A DNA stretch of 64,000 bases from Minisyncoccia bacterium (lineage in GTDB: Bacteria; Patescibacteriota; Minisyncoccia; Phycocordibacterales; DATDWN01). Below are positions 9,602-62,652 of this stretch, one piece after another. Each line of letters begins with the position of its first letter. The first letter of the stretch is position 1. Both the position numbers and the translations under genes were made by a program. Location: contig JBAQUS010000004.1 in NCBI GenBank assembly GCA_049297675.1, positions 13,188 through 77,187 of the forward strand, written 5' to 3'. The notes under the pieces are model-generated. The model saw only the letters and a program-made list of their open reading frames with translations. It made no database searches and was not told the DNA's origin.

Positions 9602-10666
9602 TTAATTTTCCCTCTTAGCTTCATTATTTGCTCTTTCAACCATAAATTTCACTGATTCATTCATATTAATATCCTGTATCTGAATACTAGGTCTCTTATT
9701 TTTAAAAACTCTATAAATCTCATCTGCAAAAGCTTGTCCAACCGTAGGAACTTTATCGTAATCCATAATAATCACCTTAAATTTCTCAAGACCAGAAAGA
9801 ACTCTGCGGGCTTGTGATCGAGATATGTGTACTCCGCCCATAACATACAATCTAACTCTTATTTCAGTTTTATCAAATCCGTAGTCACTATTTTCACCTA
9901 CGTTTGTATACTTTTTAAATATATCACTCAGATGATGTCTATCACCAACATTCACACGAAAAGTAACCTTCGTGCCCTGTTTCTGACCTTTGACTTTTTT
10001 AATAAAAATATCTTTTATTACATTATTAGCAATAAATTGATAACCATAACTATTTAGTATAAACTCGTCACCAATTTTCGAAGTGAAAAAAATACCCTCA
10101 CCGGAGTGAAGCTTAGGGGCTGTTGTAGTTTTACCTTTAAGTAAATCTTGTATAGCTTCAATTTCAGAGTGTAAGTGTTTTTTTTGCATAATATTTCTAA
10201 AAGCACCAATACCAAAGTCGTCAACAATGAAAGTTAAGACATTTTTATTAAGAGAAACAAATATCTTTATTTTCTTTGAAGTTGAGTGTTCAATGGCATT
10301 ATTTAGCATTTCGGAAAACGCATATTCAAAAATACTTTTTACATTTTCAGATATTTTTAACACTGGAAGAAATTGCTTTTCAATATCATTAAAAATTTTA
10401 TGTTCTTCTAAATTTTTATTTGTTAGGATTTTTGAGTATGAGTTTGGCGCAAGTTTTGTATTCTTTTGCAAAAATTCTTCAGTAGTATAAAAGGCTGATC
10501 GTGTTGAGCCAATCTTAATAATCATGTTTTCATACACCAAACTTGATAGAAGTTTTGAAACGTACTGCCTAGACACACCAAAAGGCTCAATAAAATCCGA
10601 AGACCTTACCGTTCCCTTTTCTTTTATCTCTTGTATTATTTTTGCTTTAGTAAGCATTGTAAACAT
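9602..10666 (-). CDS. HTH + GHKL/HATPase_c-like ATP-binding domain + DUF4325 (STAS-like) protein
   Basis: N-terminal HTH (GVSRQYVSKLLSSL). N-box-like EMLNNAIEHS and FIVDDFGIGA. C-terminal ISRSQARRVLSGLEKFKVIIMDYDKVPTVGQAFADEIYRVF is the typical DUF4325. Confidence 0.5.
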   Translation of the reverse strand: MFTMLTKAKIIQEIKEKGTVRSSDFIEPFGVSRQYVSKLLSSLVYENMIIKIGSTRSAFYTTEEFLQKNTKLAPNSYSKILTNKNLEEHKIFNDIEKQFLPVLKISENVKSIFEYAFSEMLNNAIEHSTSKKIKIFVSLNKNVLTFIVDDFGIGAFRNIMQKKHLHSEIEAIQDLLKGKTTTAPKLHSGEGIFFTSKIGDEFILNSYGYQFIANNVIKDIFIKKVKGQKQGTKVTFRVNVGDRHHLSDIFKKYTNVGENSDYGFDKTEIRVRLYVMGGVHISRSQARRVLSGLEKFKVIIMDYDKVPTVGQAFADEIYRVFKNKRPSIQIQDINMNESVKFMVERANNEAKREN

Positions 10667-13498: not shown

Positions 13499-14071
13499 TC
13501 AATCGAGAGAAAGAGAAAATAATTTTCTAATTCTCTTATCACCTTCGATAGAATCTGCAATTATGTAAAGTAGATCCTTCCCTATTTTGAAATCAGCTTT
13601 CAGTAAATTAATAAAGTCCTCACAATCGTAAGGGTAAATCCAGACACTATCTTGTAATCTCAGAAAACCAACACTACTAAGAGTCAACCTGACCTTGTTT
13701 CTAAGAATTTTTCTTGTTTCGGGAATATCAAAAATGAGCATTCTCCATCTTTTATCCCATTTCTTTGGTTTGCTAATTTTCCAATCCCTTATTTCCATGC
13801 CTTCTAAATATTTTAGTCCCTTTTCAGTTATTCTTATTAACCCGTTCTCACGTCCTAAAAATCCATTTTGTAGCAATTTATCACGAGATCTAGCCATTAC
13901 TTCTCTCTGCCTCTTTATCGGCTTAAAACCTGCTTTCTCTAGATACTGAACGGCATTAGGAGCAAGCAGTGCGAGACTGACATACCCCGCTAACTTTACT
14001 GAGGTTAGTATTATTTTTTTGAGATCATTTCTTGCCTTCCTTTTTCTTGATTTATTCTCTATATCCCCCAT
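13499..14071 (-). CDS. PaaX-like transcriptional regulator (winged-helix N-terminus + PaaX_C domain)
   Basis: RWRMLIFDIPETRKILRNKVRLTLSSVGFLRLQDSVWIYPYD matches the PaaX C-terminal domain pattern. N-terminal basic/wHTH region. Confidence 0.55.
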   Translation of the reverse strand: MGDIENKSRKRKARNDLKKIILTSVKLAGYVSLALLAPNAVQYLEKAGFKPIKRQREVMARSRDKLLQNGFLGRENGLIRITEKGLKYLEGMEIRDWKISKPKKWDKRWRMLIFDIPETRKILRNKVRLTLSSVGFLRLQDSVWIYPYDCEDFINLLKADFKIGKDLLYIIADSIEGDKRIRKLFSLSLD

Positions 14072-14086
14072 TATTCGAATATATCA

Positions 14087-14126
14087 TATACACTTAACTA
14101 GTGCTATAGCACTGATTAAGTGTATA
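14087..14126. promoter_or_regulatory. 40-bp near-perfect palindrome tatacacttaactagtgctatagcactgattaagtgtata, immediately upstream of the PaaX-like gene (putative operator)
   Basis: Seen in the sequence. Only the 2-bp inner flanks break the symmetry. Same family as 13437-13472. Confidence 0.5.
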
Positions 14127-14280
14127 TGATAGTTACGTAATATGCGTTAGTGTGTCTAATTCGTGTGCTAATATGTTTGTCTAGGACTATCAATAATATA
14201 TTATGAATCTATAATCAGTTTATTTATTCTGCTATTATTACAAATGTTACTAATCCTTCGTAGAATTCAAGAAAACGATA

Positions 14281-44257: not shown

Positions 44258-44580
44258 TGAGTAACAGAAATCAAAGACTAAGTGAAATTCTAAGAGATTT
44301 AGGTGCCCGTTTTCTGCTTCTTAATGGAAACAAATCCTCGCTTTTAACCGTGACAAAATTGGAATTAACAAGGGATGGAAAAAATGCTACTATTTTCTTT
44401 ACGGTTTTTCCAAATAGTTTTGAAAAAACTGCTCTTGAGTTTGCCAAGAGAAAAAGAAGTGATTTTAGAGAATTCGTTAAGGAAAATTCAAAACTAGGAC
44501 ACCTCCCCCAGTTTGATTTTGAAATTGATCTAGGAGAGAAAAACCGTCAAAAAATTGACGGATTATTAAATGAAAAATGA
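44257..44580 (+). CDS. rbfA: ribosome-binding factor A
   Basis: Position directly after infB. RbfA-like N-terminus (NQRLSEILRDLGARFLLL) and length. Confidence 0.65.
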   Translation: MSNRNQRLSEILRDLGARFLLLNGNKSSLLTVTKLELTRDGKNATIFFTVFPNSFEKTALEFAKRKRSDFREFVKENSKLGHLPQFDFEIDLGEKNRQKIDGLLNEK

Positions 44581-44650
44581 CCTAGTCGCCAAGTGGTAAG
44601 GCAAAGCTCTGCAAAAGCTTTATACGGCGGTTCGATTCCGCCCTAGGTCT
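44579..44650 (+). tRNA. tRNA-Cys (anticodon GCA)
   Basis: Manual fold: acceptor gacctag/ctaggtc, anticodon stem aagct/agctt with loop CTGCAAA, T arm ggcgg-ttcgatt-ccgcc. Starts 2 nt inside the rbfA stop codon. Confidence 0.75.
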
Positions 44651-44719
44651 CCCTAAAACATTTACACAGTAAGTGTTTGGGTGAACAATTCATCCAGAGA
44701 GTTGTTGTAACCAAATTTT

Positions 44720-44801
44720 GCTCGGGTGGCGGAACTGGTATACGCGTTCGACTTAAAATCGAATCCCGAAAGGGGTATGGGTTCGATTCCCATCCCGAGC
44801 A
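44720..44801 (+). tRNA. tRNA-Leu (anticodon TAA), type II
   Basis: Acceptor gctcggg/cccgagc, anticodon stem ttcga/tcgaa with loop CTTAAAA, long variable arm, T arm atggg-ttcgatt-cccat. Confidence 0.8.
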
Positions 44802-44850
44802 CAAAATTGAAATAAACTAAAATTAATGTTATAAATTTAAAGTAAAATTT

Positions 44851-44923
44851 GCGCCTATAGCTCAGCTGGTAGAGCAGATCCCTCTTAAGGATAAGGTCCC
44901 AGGTTCGATCCCTGGTGGGCGCA
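44851..44923 (+). tRNA. tRNA-Lys (anticodon CTT)
   Basis: Acceptor gcgccta/tgggcgc (one G-U), D arm gctc-agctggta-gagc, anticodon loop CTCTTAA, T arm ccagg-ttcgatc-cctgg. Confidence 0.75.
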
Positions 44924-45119
44924 CAAGCCGAAATAATCTAAACTGCTTTAGATTATTTCGGACTTGTGCGCAACCAGAATATACCTTTAGGTGATTCTGG
45001 TTGAGGTTTCGGGCTTGTGCGTTATTAAAACATGTTTACTAAATAGTTTGAATCGTGGTTTCAAATTTGTGTGTGAAAGTAAGATAGCAATATAATGTTT
45101 TAGTTTCAAGTTAACAATT

Positions 45120-45203
45120 GGGCGAGTGGCGTAACAGTAGCCGCGCCAGTCTTAGGAACTGGTCCCGTAAGGGGTGGAGGTGCGATTCCTCTCTCGCCCA
45201 CCA
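45120..45203 (+). tRNA. tRNA-Leu (anticodon TAG), type II, CCA encoded
   Basis: Acceptor gggcgag/ctcgccc, anticodon stem ccagt/actgg with loop CTTAGGA, long variable arm, T arm ggagg-tgcgatt-cctct, then ACCA. Confidence 0.8.
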
Positions 45204-45555: not shown

Positions 45556-46215
45556 TTATACTTCAAAAGTTTTGGTGTCAGCTTTTACCCCGCTATTTTT
45601 TACAAATTTATAATATTCATATTTATCCTCAAATTGGTCTAATACTACTTCCCTTTTTAATATTTCCTTCCAACGATTTTCTGTAACGTAATCCTGATAG
45701 CTAGACCACTCATATTTTTCTGGATTATTACTCCAATGTGAAAGCTCTTTTGGATTTAAATGAACATACGCAGATAAATGTAGTAGTTGTTCATTACTTT
45801 CAACATGAACTGCTTTATACGGACCTTCAAAAAGATGCCCCGAAATTTTATATTTAGTATTGAAGTATTTTGTATACGAGTTAAGTACACGTTGCATATA
45901 TTTCCCAGTTCCACCTTCTTCATTTTCACGAACTATTAGATGAAAATGGTTAGTCATCATCGCAAAAGAAACTAGGTCAACGTATCTTTTCGAAATTATC
46001 TTTTCGTAATCATCACTGTTAATGTCAAACATCCGATGTTTGACATAATTCGAGATCATTCTTGAAACTTGAGGAAAAATAACATTTGCTTGAAAGTATA
46101 AAATGAGAAATAAAAATCTAATTCTATCTCTATCATCCTTGAAGATGATTTTCTTCCCAACTCCCCGATTATATATATGATAGTGTTCCCCAATTTCAAT
46201 ATTATCTCTTCTCAT
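45556..46215 (-). mobile_element. REP-associated tyrosine transposase (RAYT; IS200/IS605 TnpA-like HUH Y1 transposase)
   Basis: HYHIYNRGVGKKIIF, HUH motif MMTNHFHLIV, GHLFEGPYKAVHVESNEQLLHLSAYVHLNP (catalytic Tyr region). Flanked by, and containing, cognate REP palindromes. Confidence 0.8.
46022..46046. repeat. REP-like palindrome atgtcaaacatcCgatgtttgacat located inside the RAYT-1 coding sequence
   Basis: 25-bp perfect palindrome (single central base) seen in the sequence. Confidence 0.6.
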
Positions 46216-46401: not shown

Positions 46402-46499
46402 GGTGAGCAGAACGGGAGCGGCAATTCTTGCCCCTTTCGTCGCTCCTTGACACTCTAGTTTTTAGTTTACAAGCGCTTAAATGCGCAGAAGAGGTTAGC

Positions 46500-48038
46500 A
46501 TGTTTTACACTATCGCAATTTCCGTTCTCGTTGCAGTGACAATCTCGGTCCTGATCGTCGTCGGTTGGCTTATCTTCCGTGTCGTACAGACACGGAGGAG
46601 GACACCAGTCATTCATGATTGGGCGCGGAGGGATGATAGTCGCGAGACGACACCCTCCCCGACTCCTACCACGACATCCGGAATTGATGTCGACCTCACA
46701 CTGAATCCTCCCCGCCATACTCCGAAAGGAAATAGCGGAAGAGAACCCGAACCGTTGCCTCCATGTAAATGGAAAAAAGGCACGTTTCGTATCATCTACT
46801 GGGCGGTAATAATTCCGCTCGGAATGATATCTGTCTTCGTTCTGGAGTGGGGTATCCTATCGGGTCTGCCACTCACGTGGAATACCCTGTTGGAATTCAA
46901 CGCAACTTCAGTTGGGCTGACCCTTGTTGTTCTCTGGGTAGCCTACTTCTTGGACACATTCAAGATCGTCAAGTTCAATGAACTCGGCGGTCGTGTGGTA
47001 CTTGGTAGTTTCGAGTCCTACTCTGACGGGATAACTCTCGCACCGAGATGGATTACCGATCTGGTCAAGGTAACGAGAGCAACTGAAGAACTTGATCAAC
47101 CTCACAGTGACCCGTCAAAAATTTTCTGGGGAGACCTAAGCAAACTTCCAGACGGGAAAATCCCGGACGGTATGGTACTACCAATTCGTGTGCCATTCCT
47201 CCAGAGGTCAAGCGATGAAGACTTCGAAGTTCGCTGGCCACTTGAAACAGGAGAGGTCAAAACCAGAATTACAAAGGGCTATGACCTTCTTAGTGCAACG
47301 GATGCTCCTGTCGAGTATTCGATCGGAATCAGATTCATCGACATCCAACGTGTTATCGTTCGACTCAGGTCACTCAAAGCAGCCTACGACTTGGCAACAG
47401 ACTATGCAGAGACGCTCATAACGGGCACTTTGCAGAAAATGTCCGCTGCCGAAGCCCAAGTACTGAAACAGGAAATTTCAGTACATCTTGAGGAACAGAC
47501 GGACAACCGTGTTTTCCAATCGTACGGCTTCGTGATCGACTTCGTGACTTTGAAGTCAATCGGGACTTCGCACACAATCGCGGAATCGCGAGCGCAGGCG
47601 GCAGCAGCTGTCAACCTTGCGAATAAAACGGTTAGAGACGCAAAAGCTACAGCTAAGGCAACCGAACTTCAAGGTGCTTCTGTGGCTGGAGCTGAATTGG
47701 CACTACTCAACGCGAGGTCAGTAGGACTACGCAACATCGTCGACGCTGCGACTTCACGGTCAGGGGGAGTTGAACTCGCCAAAGCTATGGAAGCGGCACG
47801 CGCTATTCAGTTTGGCGCAGATTCGACAGTTGTTGTCCCAGGTGGAAACACTGGGGACGGTCTCGGACTCTTTGGCGCAGCGGTCGGTACAGCAATTAGT
47901 GCTTCGGCCGCACTTGGGAGAAAACCAGCTGGTGAAAAAGCTCTAACAGAGACCCAACCAGCACAACCAACAACTACTACAACACCCCCTGCACGTGGCG
48001 ACAGACGTGGCCATAAGAAAGGGGGTAAGAGGAGTTAG
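46500..48038 (+). CDS. GC-rich membrane protein with SPFH/band-7 (stomatin/flotillin-like) core and Ala-rich C-terminal tail
   Basis: Start taken at MFYTIAISVLVAV (TM). FKIVKFNELGGRVVLGSF...ITLAPRW resembles the SPFH start. AESRAQAAAAVNLANKTVRDAKATAKATELQGAS is an Ala-rich coiled region typical of HflK/flotillin tails. ~50-55% GC against a ~35% background. Confidence 0.4.
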   Translation: MFYTIAISVLVAVTISVLIVVGWLIFRVVQTRRRTPVIHDWARRDDSRETTPSPTPTTTSGIDVDLTLNPPRHTPKGNSGREPEPLPPCKWKKGTFRIIYWAVIIPLGMISVFVLEWGILSGLPLTWNTLLEFNATSVGLTLVVLWVAYFLDTFKIVKFNELGGRVVLGSFESYSDGITLAPRWITDLVKVTRATEELDQPHSDPSKIFWGDLSKLPDGKIPDGMVLPIRVPFLQRSSDEDFEVRWPLETGEVKTRITKGYDLLSATDAPVEYSIGIRFIDIQRVIVRLRSLKAAYDLATDYAETLITGTLQKMSAAEAQVLKQEISVHLEEQTDNRVFQSYGFVIDFVTLKSIGTSHTIAESRAQAAAAVNLANKTVRDAKATAKATELQGASVAGAELALLNARSVGLRNIVDAATSRSGGVELAKAMEAARAIQFGADSTVVVPGGNTGDGLGLFGAAVGTAISASAALGRKPAGEKALTETQPAQPTTTTTPPARGDRRGHKKGGKRS

Positions 48039-48040
48039 TC

Positions 48041-49396
48041 ATGCCTATCGTCGCAATCGTTATCGTACTCCTCTTTCTCGTCTTCGGACGAAGGAAAGGA
48101 AACGATAGCAAATACATTCGAGAGTCAGAGGTCGTTGATACCAAGCCAAATGGTAAAACAGAGACGGAAAAACACACTCTGTGGTGGCACGTCGGCCACT
48201 ACAAACTCGTGTGGCTACAGCACTGGAGGAGGTCAACAACCCTCCGTGTCTCCGCCGGACTGCTTGCTTTCGGGCTGGGAGTCTGGATCTTCCCTCTAAC
48301 GAGGGAATGGTGGAGTTCGCAGTGGGTTAGCTTCGGCCTTTACCTAATTGCCGCTCTGGCCATTATCTGCCTTGGGTTCATGTTGGGCCCGGCGCAGAAA
48401 GTGCCGTTCGAGTACAGGCTCCGGCCTTTATTGCTCATCATTGGAATTGCGATCGCAGTCTACGGACTCGGTGCGAACACCAAGTTCGGTCAGAGCACCT
48501 GGTCGTGGATCGCCTCTCACTTCGGGAGAACAGATGGAAACATCGGTCTAACTCCAGAGGAGACAGCTGACCTACCGGACGGGTTCGTCGAGAGCGACAA
48601 TCCGAACCACTGGTCAAACCACGTCACCGATGAAAATCGTGATGTGGTCAACATGGTCCGGGCTGCCGTCCAGAGCGAACTTGTCCCAACCCATTGGGAC
48701 CTCGCCATGCAGATCTGCGGTATGGAATCGGCATGGTTTCGTCAGTTCGATGAGGACGGTAATGTTCTCAGAAACGTCAAAAACAATGACGGGTCAATCG
48801 ACTACGGAGTCTGTCAGATCAACTCCATATGGATGAAAAAGTCCAAGGAGTTGGGAGATGGTTTCCGGATCGACGGGCCGGCTGACGAAAACATTCGAAT
48901 GGCCATGTGGATCTGGACGAATCCAGAAACACGTGGGCCACGCGAGTGGACCGGTACGTACAACACAGCTCTTGCTGTTGTCCGCAATGCGCGGACAACG
49001 CCAGAGACTGTGAACGCACGTCGAACTCCAGAGAGGTCACCGGCTGAACAGGAGACTGTTCAGGCTGGGATCGCACTGGTCTCACAAACTGAGCCAATTC
49101 ACCAGCAACGCAACCCACAAAGAGAGGTGTCTGTCACAGCCATGTTTCCAGGATGGGTCACCGACAAGTCCTCCATGACCTGCGACCTCGAAGAGGACGC
49201 AGAAATCGAGGCGGTCGGTGAGCCTGGAATATTTTACTGGAGTGACACAAACTTCAGTACGAACATCCTAAAGCCTGGAGAAACTGCTTCACTTGCTGGA
49301 TTCAAATGCGTTGCAGTCAGATACTTTTCCCCAACGTTTGGGGGAAAACTGACTGAGGGTCAGAGCCCTTACGCAATCGTGAGACGATACAAATAA
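48041..49396 (+). CDS. GC-rich polytopic membrane protein (4 TM) with C-terminal lysozyme-like / lytic-transglycosylase-like domain
   Basis: ICGMESAWFRQF...NNDGSIDYGVCQINSIWM. The catalytic E-S plus the DG-S-x-DYG-x-x-QIN-S motif is very close to the C-type lysozyme signature (FESNFNT...NTDGSTDYGIFQINSRWW) and compatible with the SLT E-S...GLMQ pattern. Confidence 0.55.
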   Translation: MPIVAIVIVLLFLVFGRRKGNDSKYIRESEVVDTKPNGKTETEKHTLWWHVGHYKLVWLQHWRRSTTLRVSAGLLAFGLGVWIFPLTREWWSSQWVSFGLYLIAALAIICLGFMLGPAQKVPFEYRLRPLLLIIGIAIAVYGLGANTKFGQSTWSWIASHFGRTDGNIGLTPEETADLPDGFVESDNPNHWSNHVTDENRDVVNMVRAAVQSELVPTHWDLAMQICGMESAWFRQFDEDGNVLRNVKNNDGSIDYGVCQINSIWMKKSKELGDGFRIDGPADENIRMAMWIWTNPETRGPREWTGTYNTALAVVRNARTTPETVNARRTPERSPAEQETVQAGIALVSQTEPIHQQRNPQREVSVTAMFPGWVTDKSSMTCDLEEDAEIEAVGEPGIFYWSDTNFSTNILKPGETASLAGFKCVAVRYFSPTFGGKLTEGQSPYAIVRRYK

Positions 49397-49460: not shown

Positions 49461-49495
49461 TTTTATGCATGATGATATATAAAATTTCTCTACAG

Positions 49496-49526
49496 AAAAC
49501 CGCTCAAGTTGTGAGCGGTTTTCTGT
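49496..49526 (-). terminator. terminator hairpin agaaaaccgctcaagttgtgagcggttttct for the minus-strand pilin-like array
   Basis: Stem aaaaccgctca/tgagcggtttt, convergent with the 49432 terminator. Confidence 0.65.
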
Positions 49527-49536
49527 GACTAACTTG

Positions 49537-49827
49537 TTAATAGTTTCGTATTATAGCGTTGACTGCTGCGTTATTAGGTGCCACCCCGAAAGTGTTAAGG
49601 ACGAAGTGAACCAACCCATAAACCGAAAACATTATGACCATTCCCACTATTCCCCAGACCATGGAATCTCTGGACTCCTTTCTGGTATTTCCTTTATCGT
49701 CTGCATCAGAAGATAAAAACTTGATGGCCCCCCATACAAAGTACAGAAAGGCTATAGCAAACATGAGGAAAATCAATGGATTCAGTATAACGTTTGCTAC
49801 ATTACGTAGAAAAGGAACAATAGTCAT
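49537..49827 (-). CDS. TrbC/VirB2-like 'T4SS pilin' family paralog, N-terminally short (no signal peptide)
   Basis: Core motif PLIFLMFAIAFLYFVWGAIKFLSS..DDKG..RKESRDSMVWGIVGMVIMFSVYGLV is shared with the six upstream paralogs. Confidence 0.5.
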   Translation of the reverse strand: MTIVPFLRNVANVILNPLIFLMFAIAFLYFVWGAIKFLSSDADDKGNTRKESRDSMVWGIVGMVIMFSVYGLVHFVLNTFGVAPNNAAVNAIIRNY

Positions 49828-49852
49828 GTACTAGTTTCGTTAACTAGACTGA

Positions 49853-50206
49853 TTACAGACCTGTAACTGTTGGAACTGTACCAGTTGTGATGTTTTGAAC
49901 ACCAAATGTAGATTGTAACCATGCAACCAATCCGTAGATTGAGATCATGACTGCTATTGCAATCACACCCCAAATCATCTGGTTTCTACCTGCCTCCTGT
50001 GCCTTAGGATCCCCAGCTGAACGTAGGAATGTAACCAAGCCCCAGAAGAAGAACACTATCGCTAGACCGAAAACTATAGGGATAAGTGTTCTAACTGTTG
50101 TTGCAATGAAAGTAAGAAGTGCTTGCAAACCTGTTAAGTTTGGAGTCTGGGCGAAAGCCAAGACTGGAGCAAGAAAAGATCCTACTGAAATGACAATTTT
50201 TTTCAT
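49853..50206 (-). CDS. secreted two-TM TrbC/VirB2-like 'T4SS pilin' family protein (paralog 1)
   Basis: Signal peptide ending AFAQ. LIPIVFGLAIVFFFWGLVTFLRSAGDPKAQEAGRNQMIWGVIAIAVMISIYGLVAW. Confidence 0.6.
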   Translation of the reverse strand: MKKIVISVGSFLAPVLAFAQTPNLTGLQALLTFIATTVRTLIPIVFGLAIVFFFWGLVTFLRSAGDPKAQEAGRNQMIWGVIAIAVMISIYGLVAWLQSTFGVQNITTGTVPTVTGL

Positions 50207-50311
50207 TTTTTTGTTAATATTACGATTAATAATGCTATTATAGTACTTTTTAAAAATAATGCAAGTCCTCGGTCAAATAGACTCTGTGGATTAGTTTACT
50301 TCCAGTTATAC

Positions 50312-50689
50312 TTAGTTTGGACTAAAACATGTTTCAAAGTTAGTACAAGACTCAATACTAAAGACATTTCCAAGAAATGCCACTATTCCAAATAATGATA
50401 GAATGATGAACATGCCTATAATACCCCATAACATCCTTTGTTTTCCTTCCTCACGGGATTTAGAATCACCAGAATTTAGTACAAATTGTGCCACACCCCA
50501 TATAAAGAAAAGCAAAGCAACACTGCCTAGGATTGGTACTAATATATCAACTAAATCCTTAAATTCCTGAGCAAAAGTCTGAATAGTTTGAGCCGAAAGA
50601 ATGGTTGGAAAAATAGACCAAGACAAAGACACTACAAAAAATATTCTGCTGGTGTAACCATGAGAAAATATAAATTTTCTTACCATCAA
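50312..50689 (-). CDS. secreted two-TM TrbC/VirB2-like 'T4SS pilin' family protein (paralog 2)
   Basis: Signal peptide ..LSAQ. LVPILGSVALLFFIWGVAQFVLNSGDSKSREEGKQRMLWGIIGMFIILSLFGIVAF. Confidence 0.6.
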   Translation of the reverse strand: MMVRKFIFSHGYTSRIFFVVSLSWSIFPTILSAQTIQTFAQEFKDLVDILVPILGSVALLFFIWGVAQFVLNSGDSKSREEGKQRMLWGIIGMFIILSLFGIVAFLGNVFSIESCTNFETCFSPN

Positions 50690-50711
50690 AATAGTTAATG
50701 TTACAAAATTA

Positions 50712-51071
50712 TTATAAAGAAGTACAGATCATTGACCCGATTGGACACCCTGTTTGTGGTATCCCTAGAGCAGTATTTATAAATGCCACTATTCCGAATA
50801 TAGACATTATTACGAACATACCAACTACACCCCATATCATCCTTTGTTTTCCCTCTTCTCTCAGTTTGGTATCGCCAGCATTTAGAATAAATGTAGCTAC
50901 ACCCCACATAAAGAACATAAAAGCCAAACCGAAGACGATGGGTATAAGAAGTCGAACTATATTTCCGAATTCAGTCACTAGTGTTCTTACCACGGCTAGA
51001 CTCTGGGCAAAAATAAAAACAGGAAATAAAAGTTGTGGTGCATAAATTAAAAATTTTAGATTTTTCTTCAT
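50712..51071 (-). CDS. secreted two-TM TrbC/VirB2-like 'T4SS pilin' family protein (paralog 3)
   Basis: Signal peptide ..IFAQ. LIPIVFGLAFMFFMWGVATFILNAGDTKLREEGKQRMIWGVVGMFVIMSIFGIVAF. Confidence 0.6.
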   Translation of the reverse strand: MKKNLKFLIYAPQLLFPVFIFAQSLAVVRTLVTEFGNIVRLLIPIVFGLAFMFFMWGVATFILNAGDTKLREEGKQRMIWGVVGMFVIMSIFGIVAFINTALGIPQTGCPIGSMICTSL

Positions 51072-51140
51072 ATTTTTTATTTATTTCTATTTATTACTAT
51101 CAGTTATGCATTATAATACATACAACACAAAAGTACAAGG

Positions 51141-51524
51141 CTAAAATCTAATGAAAACAAAGGCAGGATCAGCATCAGTAGAGCCATTCAACCCTACAGC
51201 GTTTATAACAACACCAATGATTGCTCTTACAGATAGTAGGACAAATAAAGCAATTGTTCCCCAAAGCATATATTTTCTTCCATTTTCTATTTCCGTTTTA
51301 TTTCCAGATCGAATAAAAAATTTAGAAAGACCCCAAATAAATACTAAAACAGCTAAAGAAAGAAAGGCTGGCAGGATTGTGTTGTAAATAAGTTCTCCTG
51401 TGGTGAAGGCGGCATCTCCAAATGTGCCACCCGGAGGTATAAGTTGGGCATAAGCAATAATCGGAAAAACACTGACAACAAGGTTTGAAATGAACCTGTA
51501 GTGCTTTAAAAAAAAAGTTTTCAT
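51141..51524 (-). CDS. secreted two-TM TrbC/VirB2-like 'T4SS pilin' family protein (paralog 4)
   Basis: Signal peptide ..AYAQ. ILPAFLSLAVLVFIWGLSKFFIRSGNKTEIENGRKYMLWGTIALFVLLSV. Confidence 0.55.
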   Translation of the reverse strand: MKTFFLKHYRFISNLVVSVFPIIAYAQLIPPGGTFGDAAFTTGELIYNTILPAFLSLAVLVFIWGLSKFFIRSGNKTEIENGRKYMLWGTIALFVLLSVRAIIGVVINAVGLNGSTDADPAFVFIRF

Positions 51525-51536
51525 TATTGATAAATT

Positions 51537-51899
51537 TTAACCAACAGTGATTAGTTGACTAACCGTATTTCTAACCAGCTCTGATATGGCCACAGCTCCG
51601 AGGAGAATTCCTCCGCCTATGAGAGCCCAGAGAAGTCTCTGTTTTGCCTCGCCAAGTTTTTTCTCATTACCTTGGGCAGTTACAAAAGTAAAGCCTGCAT
51701 AAATAATGTACATTACAACCACCACGGCTCCTATAGGCAAAACCACGTTGTTAAGGAGTGCAGTTAAAATATCAATGAGATTGCTTCCTGCTTTGGTGGC
51801 CGGATTGGTAATGGTAATATTTTGAGCGAACAAAACTACTGGCAAAATAATATTAGCGAGTATCAGAAGAATTTTTGTGTATTTTTTATATATTTTCAT
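51537..51899 (-). CDS. secreted two-TM pilin-like protein (divergent paralog 5)
   Basis: Signal peptide ..LFAQ. VLPIGAVVVVMYIIYAGFTFVTAQGNEKKLGEAKQRLLWALIGGGILLGAVAI has the same architecture with a weaker motif. Confidence 0.45.
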   Translation of the reverse strand: MKIYKKYTKILLILANIILPVVLFAQNITITNPATKAGSNLIDILTALLNNVVLPIGAVVVVMYIIYAGFTFVTAQGNEKKLGEAKQRLLWALIGGGILLGAVAISELVRNTVSQLITVG

Positions 51900-51903
51900 A
51901 TTA

Positions 51904-52314
51904 TTAACCTAGAAAAGTTGGAATATTATCATCTAATAATGCTGTGGTGATAAGTCTAACTAACACCCAGGCGATTATTATAATAGCAATACCCTGTACA
52001 ACTTTAAGAAGCATACCCGCGGCTTTTGCCCGCTCCGAAGCACTCTCTCCACCCATCATAAACCTAAAGCCAGCCCAAGCGATAACTATAACAGAAAAAC
52101 CTAGGGCAAACTTAGTTCCTTCGTTTGTCACTCGTCTTACGGCTCTTATCAGGTCATCAAATGTACACTCTCCTGCTATCCCACCAACTCCGGGACACTC
52201 GTAAACAAACTGGGCATGGCTTACTAGTGGTGTAAAAAGAAAAAGAAAAACAAGAAACAGGAGAATTTTTGATGCCAAATTATTTAAAAATGTACTTCTC
52301 ATTTTGTTAAACAT
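51904..52314 (-). CDS. secreted two-TM pilin-like protein (divergent paralog 6, Cys-containing mature N-terminus)
   Basis: Signal peptide ..SHAQ. ...FSVIVIAWAGFRFMMGGESASERAKAAGMLLKVVQGIAIIIIAWVLV. Confidence 0.45.
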   Translation of the reverse strand: MFNKMRSTFLNNLASKILLFLVFLFLFTPLVSHAQFVYECPGVGGIAGECTFDDLIRAVRRVTNEGTKFALGFSVIVIAWAGFRFMMGGESASERAKAAGMLLKVVQGIAIIIIAWVLVRLITTALLDDNIPTFLG

Positions 52315-53603
52315 TATGATTTGATTAGAGCAGTCAGTTCTGTTTCCGCTCTGTTTAAGGCATCAGATGCTCTAGACCTTCCACTAGTTATGCTCTCAAT
52401 CATATCACGAAACAGATTTGAAGTTGCCTGTGGTTCAGGATCAATCCACGACCTGGAGATTAAGGCAGAATCATAGAATACTTGCATGTGAGCCTCTGGA
52501 GGCTTCACAGAAAGCATGTCTCTTCTTACAGGAGGTAGGTTTGTAATGCCACCTATTCCCTTTATAGCTTCGACCTCTGTCAGAGCGTTTAGGGCTATAA
52601 AGGAGGCCTGGATATTTTTGGATTGCTTTACAATGGATATACCGTAGAGATGTCCGAAAACTACTTTCTTTTTGCTATCTCTTATTTGTGGAACCGAAGT
52701 GACACCGTAATTTAGATTTGGATTTTTTTGTTGAATACCAACTAGCTCACTAGCAAAACCAAAATAAATAGCCAAATTTCCGGAGAGAAAGAAGTTGGAT
52801 GAAGATGGAAGGGACCTATTCCAGGAATATGAGACAAGGTTTGGATTAGAAAATTGGATGTAAAAATCTGTTGCTGACTGGCTCGGAGTCCTAGGATATC
52901 CGAACTGAAGGTTAAGCACTGTATCAAGCCCATTTTCCTCCCTCTGTATTATTGGTGTTCCAGCTTGGAGCATGAGCATTATGAGTAACTCCTTGGCACT
53001 TGTGATATTTCTCCATTCACCGAAAGCTATAGTTGATTGAGAAATATTGGCCTGACCGTCTTTTTTGGTGATCTTTGGAACCAAGTCTGGAATCTCGTCC
53101 CAGTATTTAGGAGGGGACGCAATAAAGTTGCTGGAGAATAAGTCTCTATTCCAATACATAACCATGGGATCAATAATGAATGGCAAAGCTAATATGCCTT
53201 CTGGAGTAAGAAACAATTCCCCTTCTTCTATAAACCTGTCCTTGAAATCCCTCTCTGGATAAAATTCCGATGGTATTGGATAAAGTTTATTTCTATTTTT
53301 GTAAACCAAATCCTCTCTAAGAATAACTATGTCTGGCCCTCTACCTTCTGCCAGAGCCTCGACAAAGTCTCTATCAAAATCTGATGGGTCCTTTCTGACA
53401 TACATCACTCTTATGTTTTTATTTCCAGAAAGTGACGAAGCTATATAAGCATTTGTAAATGCATCGTCCGAAATAGTTCCCCATGCGACTAGACCAGCAG
53501 ATACATTTGCTGTACCGGTATTTTTACTCAAGGCAAAAACCATAATACCTGCAACTATGGCCACAGAGAAGACGGCTATGACAGCTATTTTAAACGTACT
53601 CAT
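52314..53603 (-). CDS. membrane-anchored extracellular solute-binding-protein-like protein (family 1 SBP fold)
   Basis: N-terminal TM, then LVAWGTISDDAFTNAYIASS...FVEALAEGRGPDIVIL resembles SBP_bac_1 N-lobe. No adjacent permease or ATPase genes. Confidence 0.4.
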   Translation of the reverse strand: MSTFKIAVIAVFSVAIVAGIMVFALSKNTGTANVSAGLVAWGTISDDAFTNAYIASSLSGNKNIRVMYVRKDPSDFDRDFVEALAEGRGPDIVILREDLVYKNRNKLYPIPSEFYPERDFKDRFIEEGELFLTPEGILALPFIIDPMVMYWNRDLFSSNFIASPPKYWDEIPDLVPKITKKDGQANISQSTIAFGEWRNITSAKELLIMLMLQAGTPIIQREENGLDTVLNLQFGYPRTPSQSATDFYIQFSNPNLVSYSWNRSLPSSSNFFLSGNLAIYFGFASELVGIQQKNPNLNYGVTSVPQIRDSKKKVVFGHLYGISIVKQSKNIQASFIALNALTEVEAIKGIGGITNLPPVRRDMLSVKPPEAHMQVFYDSALISRSWIDPEPQATSNLFRDMIESITSGRSRASDALNRAETELTALIKS

Positions 53604-53640
53604 ATTCGCTGATTATAACAAGAAATCATTTTTTCTAAAA

Positions 53641-54365: not shown

Positions 54366-55043
54366 CTAGTAACTATCTTTATATTCTAACCAATCAGTTA
54401 TATTATCATTAAAATCAAAGATACTTGAAAAATACTCAGGGAAATTAGTTTTGTCTAAAATCATACCCGCTTCCCTCTTTTGTCCGACATAATCTAAATA
54501 ACTAGAACAATCATAATTCGATAGAAATTTTTTAGCTTTACTAATGTTTTTTATTCCAGATTCTTTCCAGTCATATTCAATTAATTTAACTGGATTAAGA
54601 TGAATGTAAGAAAATAAATATTTCAAATATTCATCAGAGTCAGCATGTTCTGCTTTATATGTACCCTGAAACAACGAACCCACTCTATCATTTAATTTAT
54701 TAAAGTAGGTAGAATAGCCCGTAGTCAATTTTTCCATAAACATAGCTGTACCGCCCTCAACAATTTCTCTAACAAGAATATGAAAATGATTTGGCATTAA
54801 AACCCATGCTCCTATTGCAACGAGTTGCTCGCCCCTGTTAATATCTTTCAATGGTAAGTCTATTGTTGTGCTGTACCTATAAGGAAGAGTATTGTTTGCA
54901 AGATATAAGAGTCTAATAAATCTCTTATAATCATTCTGTGAAATAAAAATATCGCGCTTTTCAACTCCTCGATTATATATATGGTAAAACTCGCCTTCAG
55001 ATATGACTATTTTTCTTTGCATAGAAGCACTATATACTAACAA
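54366..55043 (-). mobile_element. REP-associated tyrosine transposase (RAYT; IS200/IS605 TnpA-like), second paralog
   Basis: FYHIYNRGVEKRDIF, HUH LMPNHFHILV, GSLFQGTYKAEHADSDEYLKYLFSYIHLNP. Flanked on both sides by ctagggtaaccctag REP palindromes. Confidence 0.8.
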
Positions 55044-55050
55044 CTCTCAT

Positions 55051-55073
55051 CTTACTAGGGTAACCCTAGTAAG
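55051..55073. repeat. REP-like palindrome cttactagggtaaccctagtaag (upstream flank of RAYT-2)
   Basis: Perfect 23-bp palindrome seen in the sequence. Confidence 0.65.
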
Positions 55074-55133
55074 ATGAAATTTTGATACCATGAAGCCCTG
55101 AGACTTCATGGTCCCAGGGCTGTTACCTGCTTT

Positions 55134-61894: not shown

Positions 61895-62052
61895 TTGATT
61901 ATCTTAGCATAAGATAATCAAAAATTTCCAATTACTAATTTCTAATTGCTAATTACTAAAATTACGTGTCTAAGTTTAAAAATTATAAATTTGAAATTAA
62001 AAATTAACTTTTTCTATTGTGTCAAACGAGCTTTGCTTGTATACTTCTTTTT

Positions 62053-62652
62053 ATGAATTCTGAAAATCCAGATAAAATTGTTGTTGAAAAAAATCAGGAA
62101 AAGAAAAGTACTTGGAAAGACATTGTCAAAGAAATAGTTATTTTTGTAATCATTGCTTTTGGTATTGTCTTACCTTTTAGAATGTATGTGGCTGAGCCGT
62201 ATTTAGTTGATGGCAGGTCAATGGATCCGACATTTAAAACAGGAGACTATCTGATAGTCAACAAAATACTTTACAGATACAAGACTCCAGAAAGAAATAC
62301 AGTTCTAGTCTTCAAATACCCAAACGATCCCAAAAAAAGCTTTATAAAAAGAGTGATTGGGCTTCCTGGTGAGACTGTAGAAATCAAGGGCAACACTGTC
62401 ACAATAAAAAACAAGGAAAATCCAGAGGGTTTGGTTTTAGACCAATCTTATGTTATACATACCTCTCAACAGGATATTAAGAGGGTGCTCTCCGAAGATG
62501 AATATTTTGTTATGGGAGATAATAGAACTGAAAGCTTTGACTCGAGAGCTTGGGGTCCGCTTAACAAAAAATACGTATCTGGTGAGCCACTTATTAGGCT
62601 TTGGCCACTAAATAAAATTGAACTTTTGCCAGGCATTTTGCAAGTTAAGTAA
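62053..62652 (+). CDS. lepB: signal peptidase I
   Basis: VDGRSMDPTFKTGDYLIV (catalytic Ser box), GDNRTESFDSRAWG (box E), catalytic Lys region KRVIGLPGE. Start at MNSENPD. The track begins 36 nt upstream. Confidence 0.85.
   Translation: MNSENPDKIVVEKNQEKKSTWKDIVKEIVIFVIIAFGIVLPFRMYVAEPYLVDGRSMDPTFKTGDYLIVNKILYRYKTPERNTVLVFKYPNDPKKSFIKRVIGLPGETVEIKGNTVTIKNKENPEGLVLDQSYVIHTSQQDIKRVLSEDEYFVMGDNRTESFDSRAWGPLNKKYVSGEPLIRLWPLNKIELLPGILQVK

Follow-up and report, generated by a model that had tools for sequence, protein, structure and literature searches.

A conserved, ordered array of seven divergent VirB2/TrbC-type pilin-like genes on a Minisyncoccia chromosome

Seven consecutive minus-strand genes on the chromosome of a Minisyncoccia bacterium (Patescibacteria) form a paralogous family of VirB2/TrbC-type pilin-like genes. 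The array occupies positions 49,537 to 52,314 of a stretch of 64,000 nucleotides, referred to here as the window, from NCBI GenBank assembly GCA_049297675.1 (contig JBAQUS010000004.1, positions 13,188 to 77,187 of the forward strand). Comparison with related species shows that the array did not arise by recent amplification and is not of a variable kind. An earlier note on this DNA had described the copies as graded in divergence, which is numerically true, but the gradient stems from old subfamilies, each conserved separately, and not from successive recent duplications. On balance we favour, with modest confidence, the reading that the products are co-assembling, specialised pilin subunits of one conserved operon, built by a Patescibacteria-type type IV secretion system (T4SS) that is encoded elsewhere in the genome. 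The copies were named P1 to P7 in coordinate order and all are on the minus strand, so that P7 is transcribed first:

51904-52314, minus strand: P7, transcribed first; 136 aa, signal peptide ending in PLVSHAQ, N-terminal extension with a Cys pair (C40, C50), two-helix hairpin
51537-51899, minus strand: P6, TrbC/VirB2-like pilin; 120 aa, signal peptide ending in PVVLFAQ, I-x-N-P motif before the hairpin
51141-51524, minus strand: P5, core-group pilin-like protein; 127 aa
50712-51071, minus strand: P4, core-group pilin; 119 aa, loop motif GD.K.REEGKQ, C-terminal tail with C109 and C116
50312-50689, minus strand: P3, core-group pilin; 125 aa from TTG, 124 aa from the next ATG according to gene callers, tail cysteines C115 and C121
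49853-50206, minus strand: P2, core-group pilin; 117 aa, the most conserved copy
49537-49827, minus strand: P1, terminal signal-less pilin-like protein; 96 aa

All seven genes were open reading frames (ORFs) of the positions and lengths (96 to 136 aa) given in the earlier note, and the gaps between them measured 4 to 105 nt. That note had also described a signal peptide ending in F/Y/H/S-A-Q followed by two hydrophobic helices with a charged loop between them, and the signal was recovered in six of the seven proteins and the helices in all seven. P2 to P7 begin with a Lys/Arg-rich start and a hydrophobic h-region followed by P-x4-[FSYH]-A-Q, which ends at residues 20 to 35. Between the two hydrophobic segments (Kyte-Doolittle 17-residue maxima of 1.8 to 2.9) lies a charged loop, about 18 residues long. 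P1, the terminal copy, carries no signal segment, as had been noted, and its residue 1 aligns with the start of the mature part of the other copies. AlphaFold2 models of P4 were helical hairpins in both the precursor and the mature form (pLDDT of 80 and 77.5), with helices at residues 5-63 and 68-101 of the precursor and at 2-41 and 46-79 of the mature form. Neither a class III signal peptide nor a G-F-x-x-x-E motif was found in the seven proteins, and no type IV pilus (T4P) family was among their Pfam matches. Pairwise identity among the seven ranged from 11 to 46% with a mean of about 25%, P3 and P4 being the closest pair at 46% amino acid identity. The sequence motif proposed earlier as common to four copies was roughly right for P2 to P5, but its spacer between GM and S was one position too long. 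After correction to four dots the motif was exact in P4 and was matched at 27 of 29 fixed positions in P3, 23 of 29 in P2 and 14 of 29 in P5. A search with the family hidden Markov model (HMM) detected no further members of the family elsewhere in the 64-kb window. The GenBank locus tags leave two numbers between the lysozyme-like gene next to the array (WAX44_00835) and P4 (WAX44_00850), and three genes (P1, P2 and P3; 49537-50689) lie there; the count is thus one short and one pilin copy appears to be unannotated in GenBank.

The seven proteins matched PF18895 (T4SS_pilin) independently of one another with E values of 1e-11 to 7e-5, and seven independent matches at this level are not due to chance. 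Four copies scored above the Pfam gathering score of 26.6 bits (P1 31.2, P2 35.1, P3 45.1 and P4 38.8 bits) and three fell below it by 1 to 3 bits (P5 25.8, P6 25.4 and P7 23.2 bits). P6 in addition passed the gathering score of PF04956 (TrbC/VirB2; 27.9 bits) with 30.8 bits, P7 reached 16.9 bits and the other five had no match to this family. The P6-type orthologues behaved in the same manner, with 21 of 21 matching PF18895 and 17 of 21 matching TrbC at E<1e-3. In NCBIfam the best match of all seven copies was NF045849, a pilin-like family of mycoplasma integrative and conjugative elements (ICE), with E values of 1e-8 to 6e-3 and scores of 16 to 35 bits against a cut-off of 40. Holins or other competing small-membrane-protein families did not appear among the Pfam and NCBIfam matches at E values up to 1. 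The HMM check named in the earlier note thus supports the family assignment made there, with four copies above the gathering score of T4SS_pilin and P6 alone above that of TrbC/VirB2, and no competing family scored better.

Related loci were collected by scanning a single genome of each species with an alignment of the P4 type as query, which returned 30 Patescibacteria loci (labelled L with a number below). Pilin-like ORFs in these loci were called with the family HMM on six-frame ORFs and each was assigned to its best-matching window paralogue. Five to seven co-directional pilin-like ORFs were present in 23 of the 30 loci, and L032 additionally carried ten in two clusters; six was the commonest copy number among the relatives. 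The same gene order, a P7-type copy followed by a P6-type copy, two to four core copies of the mutually similar P2-P5 group and a P1-type copy, was observed in 21 of 30 loci, with three core copies in 16 loci. Each position had its own signature. Every aligned member at the first position had a Cys...Cys pair before the first helix, and at the second position the N-P within I-x-N-P was invariant (N32 and P33 in the alignment). The core copies in the middle shared the loop G-D-x-K-x-R-E-E-G-K-Q. The last position was signal-less in 24 of 24 loci, with proteins of 78 to 106 aa that start with M-[TS]-I-x-P-F-L...I-L-N-P. The possibility that P1 is a truncated pseudogene or decayed duplicate was rejected, as it belongs to a signal-less subfamily conserved in these 24 loci.

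In the core group (81 sequences) the two helices and the loop between them were the conserved parts, and variation lay in the C-terminal tail and at the N terminus of the mature protein. Variable termini around a conserved core fit termini that face outwards. The two tail cysteines of P3 and P4 were also present in many homologues. The first-position protein of L016 (6736-8751, plus strand) is 671 aa long and has its PF18895 module at residues 593-655, suggesting that pilin modules can display other domains. Array members with large extra domains were also seen in L038 (7333-8460), L028 (8530-9471) and L015 (8674-9498).

The closest other species was that of L005, whose binding-protein gene product (the gene lies directly upstream of the array, see below) is 84% identical to that of the window, and each of the seven copies had a one-to-one positional orthologue there. 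Identity to these orthologues was 77% for P7, 76% for P6, 50% for P5, 82% for P4, 57% for P3, 95% for P2 and 74% for P1. Comparison of the window with L005 gave dN/dS values of 0.05 to 0.24 for the five copies with estimable dS (about 0.05 for P2 and about 0.09 for P1), to be read only qualitatively, as low dN relative to dS, with synonymous sites near or at saturation (pS, the proportion of synonymous differences, of 0.55 to 0.84 except in P2). These low values are indicative of, and consistent with, purifying selection. The synonymous difference of P2 was only 0.34, as compared to 0.55 to 0.84 for its neighbours, and its GC content was also higher (0.42); this pattern could reflect recent recombination between lineages or constraint at the nucleotide level. 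The same array was found in several independent assemblies (including the metagenome-assembled genome GCA_049296155.1), three of which were 100% identical over the compared region and one of which was a strain variant at 96.8%. Only one DNA repeat was shared by copies, a 164-nt stretch that is 74% identical in P3 and P4, and neither an invertible element nor a slippery tract was observed at the locus.

When P1 was used as query against 1.84 billion representative proteins, 5,629 relatives were obtained at E<=1e-3. Many of these were single chains with two to six tandem pilin modules and no internal signal peptides, for example the database relatives P0011 and P0012 with three modules each, P0090 with six modules and a Cys-rich tail, and also P0097 and P0137. 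Their fusion into one chain suggests that pilin modules function next to one another. One fusion polypeptide was 933 aa long, with six modules followed by a long Cys-rich C-terminal domain.

The gene immediately upstream of the array encodes a solute-binding protein, and a promoter-like site precedes it:

52314-53603, minus strand: membrane-anchored MalE-like solute-binding protein; 429 aa, PF01547 and PF13416, PDB sequence matches are maltose-binding proteins
53612-53639, minus strand: promoter-like site TTTAGA-16-TG-TATAAT just upstream of the binding-protein gene; consensus match only

The stop of the binding-protein gene overlaps the P7 start by 1 nt, and the array is translationally coupled to it. 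A binding-protein gene was directly upstream of the array in 30 of the 30 loci with a detected homologue (28 from the genome scan together with L005 and L006), and in 27 of these its stop overlapped or lay no more than 30 nt from the first pilin ORF. The order GyrA, methyltransferase, binding protein, array was found in most related loci. The short or overlapping intergenic gaps imply co-transcription, and the binding-protein gene is probably the first gene of the operon. The site at 53612-53639 is a possible operon promoter judged by its consensus match, and the number of promoter-like sites in the region was not above the shuffled expectation. An ABC permease or ATPase gene for the binding protein was not found in the window.

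On its other side the array is bounded by an inverted repeat and by two convergent genes:

49492-49526, no strand: perfect 15-bp inverted repeat with a 5-nt loop, between the stops of the lysozyme-like gene (49396) and P1 (49537)
48041-49396, plus strand: multi-transmembrane lysozyme/lytic-transglycosylase-like protein, convergent on the array; 451 aa, motif E-S...D-Y-G-V-x-Q-I-N
46428-48038, plus strand: SPFH/Band_7-like membrane protein, abutting and co-oriented with the lysozyme-like gene; 536 aa from TTG, 512 aa according to gene callers

The inverted repeat is likely to be a bidirectional terminator. In the 451-aa product the lysozyme-like domain is preceded by several transmembrane helices at the N terminus, and the family profile of this protein matched lysozymes (E=8.5e-6) and EtgA, a transglycosylase of a type III secretion system (E=2.4e-4). 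Pfam SLT was matched by one of 13 scanned lysozyme-like homologues (2.3e-5), and the annotation of the L005 orthologue has a faint SLT match. PF01145 Band_7 was matched by 11 of 19 SPFH orthologues (best 4.6e-13), the window copy itself having no match. Homologues were found downstream of the array in 12 related species loci for the lysozyme-like gene and in 18 for the SPFH gene. The lysozyme-like protein is a possible cell-wall-opening partner with a VirB1/EtgA-like role, and from their position a wall hydrolase and a membrane scaffold would be plausible helpers for an envelope-spanning structure. In L006 a sortase gene (13599-14186, minus strand) lies directly beyond the SPFH-like gene, beside the pilin array.

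The base composition of this pair (46428-49396) is unusual, with a GC content of 0.51 to 0.53 and a GC content at third codon positions (GC3) of 0.48 to 0.60 in a window with a GC content of 0.37 and a median GC3 of 0.30. The same excess occurred in the same place in most related species (among them L005 3909-6529, L013 11653-13466, L021 11180-13025 and L026 11120-12678), in L026 for example at 0.56 versus 0.38. The pair evolves very fast, with 43% identity or no BLAST match where the flanking genes are about 80% identical, and among 5.8 billion proteins only four homologues were found, none of them a close donor homologue of the high-GC island. That the island at 46.4-49.4 kb was a recent horizontal acquisition or an assembly chimera was considered and rejected, as the same genes, GC excess and location were found in many species and independent assemblies.

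The rest of the window is ordinary chromosome, with genes for ClpB, IF-2, GyrA, TopA, RelA/SpoT, ParB, MurA, MurB, DprA, SerRS, ribosomal protein S1, Pth and signal peptidase I and eight tRNAs. The array itself is flanked by the MalE-like binding protein, the methyltransferase and GyrA genes on one side and by the lysozyme-like and SPFH genes and tRNAs on the other. The only gene seen for pilin maturation was that of the signal peptidase I (62017-62652, PF10502), which is of the housekeeping type. Four tRNA genes at 44579-45203 on the plus strand (Cys-GCA, Leu-TAA, Lys-CTT and Leu-TAG) lie just upstream of a Y1 transposase-like gene and the GC-rich pair. This gene is one of two paralogous IS200-like Y1 transposase-domain genes that bracket the wider locus (45556-46215 and 54366-55043, both on the minus strand), and a perfect hairpin with a 16-bp stem (55045-55079) lies directly beside the second. 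Y1 homologues were also found between gyrA and the methyltransferase gene in L011, L013, L021, L026 and L034. A gene at 9602-10666 (minus strand) encodes a histidine-kinase-like ATPase domain and a STAS-like DUF4325 after an N-terminal DNA-binding-like stretch.

The explanation that we favour would run as follows. The seven pilin genes would be transcribed together with the upstream MalE-like binding-protein gene and six of the products (P2 to P7) would be exported by Sec. From the sequence of the junction, signal peptidase I is predicted to cut after the Ala of A-Q (Ala at -1; Ala, Leu, Ile or Ser at -3), leaving an N-terminal Gln. The mature protein would be a helical hairpin in the membrane with its variable termini outside and its conserved basic loop inside, and P1 would reach the same hairpin topology without a cleaved signal. 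The copies belong to at least four old subfamilies that have a fixed gene order, the first with a disulfide-type Cys pair or larger N-terminal domains, and are not interchangeable variants. They would co-assemble into one heteromeric surface fibre or conduit in the manner of major and minor pilins. The hairpins would be extracted from the membrane and polymerised by a VirB4-type machine, with VirB4, VirB3/PrgI and VirB6 encoded elsewhere in the genome. The first-position copy, which has extra domains in some species, is a candidate for a subunit that is exposed or sits at the tip, and the copy without a signal may have a special role. In this scheme the convergent lysozyme-like membrane protein would make the opening in the cell wall, at a site for which the SPFH protein would serve as scaffold.

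T4SS-driven assembly is the weakest step of this explanation, and several results weigh against it. No VirB4, VirD4, VirB6 or virB3 gene was found in the 64-kb window by ORF size and Pfam. The earlier note was correct that VirB4, VirB6 and VirD4 are not in the window, where the only ORFs of at least 600 aa are TopA, ClpB and GyrA and the other sizeable ORFs have unrelated Pfam assignments. A T4SS gene was likewise not found in about 5 kb beyond the left end of the window. Near the array in the 30 related loci (up to 10 kb on each side, several loci ending at contig ends) no ORF of at least 500 aa was identified as VirB4. Those checked against Pfam were penicillin-binding proteins, RNase J, an SBP_bac_5 protein, GroEL, BipA and the 671-aa pilin-module protein of L016, with two giving no match; the remaining ones matched GyrA by phmmer or, judged only from size and position, were taken to be IF-2 and ClpB. 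Since no T4SS gene was found in the window or the 30 loci, the link to a T4SS rests on the family names and on a different class (Saccharimonadia). According to a published survey, virB4 is located near dnaA in the class Paceibacteria (PMC12102498). Similarity to solved pilins was marginal, the best PDB sequence match of the family profile being the pKM101 pilin TraM at E=0.046, and the PDB sequence search with a P6-type profile found nothing. Fold searches were uninformative for a helical hairpin and matched hundreds of unrelated hairpins. Covalent polyproteins of pilin modules also fit poorly with a pilus that is polymerised one subunit at a time.

Some of the same evidence is shared by the main alternative, which we consider unlikely, that the array encodes a T4SS-independent heteromeric membrane complex or short conduit that works with the co-translated MalE-like protein, for example in the uptake of host molecules, with no VirB4-driven pilus. 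The seven hairpin proteins are predicted to contribute 14 transmembrane helices after processing, and single-chain fusions of three to six modules would be easier to reconcile with a fixed complex in the membrane than with a fibre that polymerises. This alternative also agrees with the binding-protein gene directly upstream in all 30 loci with a homologue (abutting or overlapping in 27), with the lack of a candidate VirB4 near the array in the 30 loci or the window and with the lack of an ABC permease or ATPase gene beside the binding protein in the window. However, the family is known experimentally only from a T4SS cluster (PMC10633639), TrbC/VirB2 is matched by the P6 type and no energising component of such a complex is evident. 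Moreover, the order GyrA, methyltransferase, binding protein, array is strongly kept in these reduced genomes, and adjacency alone may overstate the functional coupling. We regard as improbable the further proposal that in Patescibacteria of the Minisyncoccia/Paceibacteria type the set of six or seven pilins has become separated from the T4SS and forms, with the translationally coupled MalE-like protein and the adjacent lysozyme-like and SPFH proteins, a distinct heteromeric envelope-spanning apparatus. On this view it would be a conduit of fixed stoichiometry that captures host-derived molecules and does not need VirB4, and its subunits would be obligate partners and not variants.

The earlier note had offered several pilus subunits, antigenic or phase variation and a cassette-like reservoir as possible functions, and the data favour the first and disfavour the other two. 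That the copies are a variation repertoire, either alternative major pilins (antigenic, phase or host-range) or silent cassettes, was also raised in PMC12102498. It is in agreement with the variability of the exposed N- and C-terminal segments, with a core copy number that changes from two to four between species and with the faster evolution of P5 and P3, the two fastest-evolving copies (50% and 57% identity to L005 versus 84% for the neighbouring binding protein). Against it, the order and the subfamilies are kept in 21 of 30 species, every copy has a positional orthologue and dN/dS is low (below 0.25, with dS near saturation) in the copies with estimable dS. At 11 to 46% identity between paralogues, with the single 164-nt repeat at 74%, there is no substrate for homologous cassette exchange, and the short or overlapping gaps imply that the copies are transcribed together. 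The locus showed neither invertible elements nor slippery tracts, and three independent assemblies were 100% identical over the locus. Together the conserved order and subfamilies, the low dN/dS and the lack of a recombination-grade repeat argue against variation or silent cassettes, which we consider improbable, and favour specialised subunits that are all needed. Finally, it is very improbable that these are unrelated two-helix proteins of the holin, bacteriocin-immunity or toxin type that match the pilin HMM only through hydrophobic composition. In favour of this view, hairpins of two helices have a simple composition, three copies score just below the gathering score and fold searches hit hundreds of unrelated hairpins. 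Against it, there are seven independent PF18895 matches with no better-scoring family, holins are not characterised by cleavable signal peptides, the surroundings are a housekeeping chromosome with no phage or lysis cassette, and the conservation of loop and motif reaches beyond the hydrophobic segments.

A large part of the bacterial diversity that has not been cultivated belongs to the Patescibacteria, which rely on host cells. A VirB2-like array is essential in the one genetically tractable species, and the question is what such an array builds and why it has six or more copies. The conserved, ordered subfamilies with low dN/dS, the signal-less subfamily and the tie to a solute-binding protein and not to VirB4 narrow the question of why there are so many pilins. 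The comparative result argues for a heteromeric structure with specialised subunits over antigenic variation, and it leads to predictions that make the question more testable by proteomics, cryo-electron tomography and transposon sequencing in cultivable relatives.

Among known systems, the Mbov_0395-family protein of mycoplasma ICE (NF045849) resembles the array products in being the best NCBIfam match of all seven and in coming from a T4SS that is also monoderm, but all scores were below the cut-off, and in mycoplasmas the protein is encoded by one gene that is part of a mobile element. The sets of major and minor pilins of T4P and type II secretion systems offer a functional analogy only, with divergent paralogues in a fixed order in one operon, members of which are thought to prime, tip or anchor the fibre. 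Those pilins are unrelated in fold and processing, having one N-terminal helix and a class III signal peptide that is removed by prepilin peptidase. The VirB2/TrbC/TraA pilins of diderm T4SS (for example pKM101 TraM, PDB 8cw4) share with the array products a small pre-protein, a long signal peptide, two helices and a short basic loop. In contrast, they undergo cyclisation (TrbC, VirB2) or N-acetylation (TraA) as part of their processing and are usually encoded by a single gene beside virB3 and virB4, whereas here there are seven paralogues with Cys-pair termini, no adjacent machinery and a monoderm envelope.

The closest known counterparts are in other Patescibacteria. Wang et al. (2023) described six PF18895 genes, SEML1_0014-0019, inside the T4SS cluster of Southlakia epibionticum ML1 that are essential for epibiotic growth (PMC10633639), and this array is reviewed in PMC12857230. 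Both arrays consist of tandem divergent PF18895 proteins on a Patescibacteria chromosome, some also matching PF04956 (about 125 to 140 aa in S. epibionticum), and the S. epibionticum copy number of six is the commonest number in the relatives of the present array. The S. epibionticum genes belong to the class Saccharimonadia and lie inside the T4SS cluster beside VirB4-, PrgI- and VirB6-like genes, whereas the present ones belong to Minisyncoccia and lie between a binding-protein gene and the SPFH/lysozyme-like pair. Quinonero-Coronel et al. (2025) applied PF18895, PF04956 and further profiles to 3,035 Patescibacteria genomes and reported 441 'VirB2 arrays' of 2 to 11 tandem pilin genes in 383 assemblies, with a mean identity of 25% and a maximum of 54%, most abundant in Microgenomatia and Saccharimonadia (PMC12102498). 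Roles in variation or host range were proposed there by analogy with Bartonella and Anaplasma. With seven tandem genes, a mean identity of about 25% and a maximum of 46%, the present array falls within that definition. It is thus a further example, in a different class, of a kind of feature described from 2023 to 2025. Four features of the locus do not appear in the main text of that survey or of the other papers cited, supplements apart, namely the constant order of the subfamilies, the conservation of a member with no signal, the coupling to a binding-protein gene and the persistently GC-rich SPFH/lysozyme pair.

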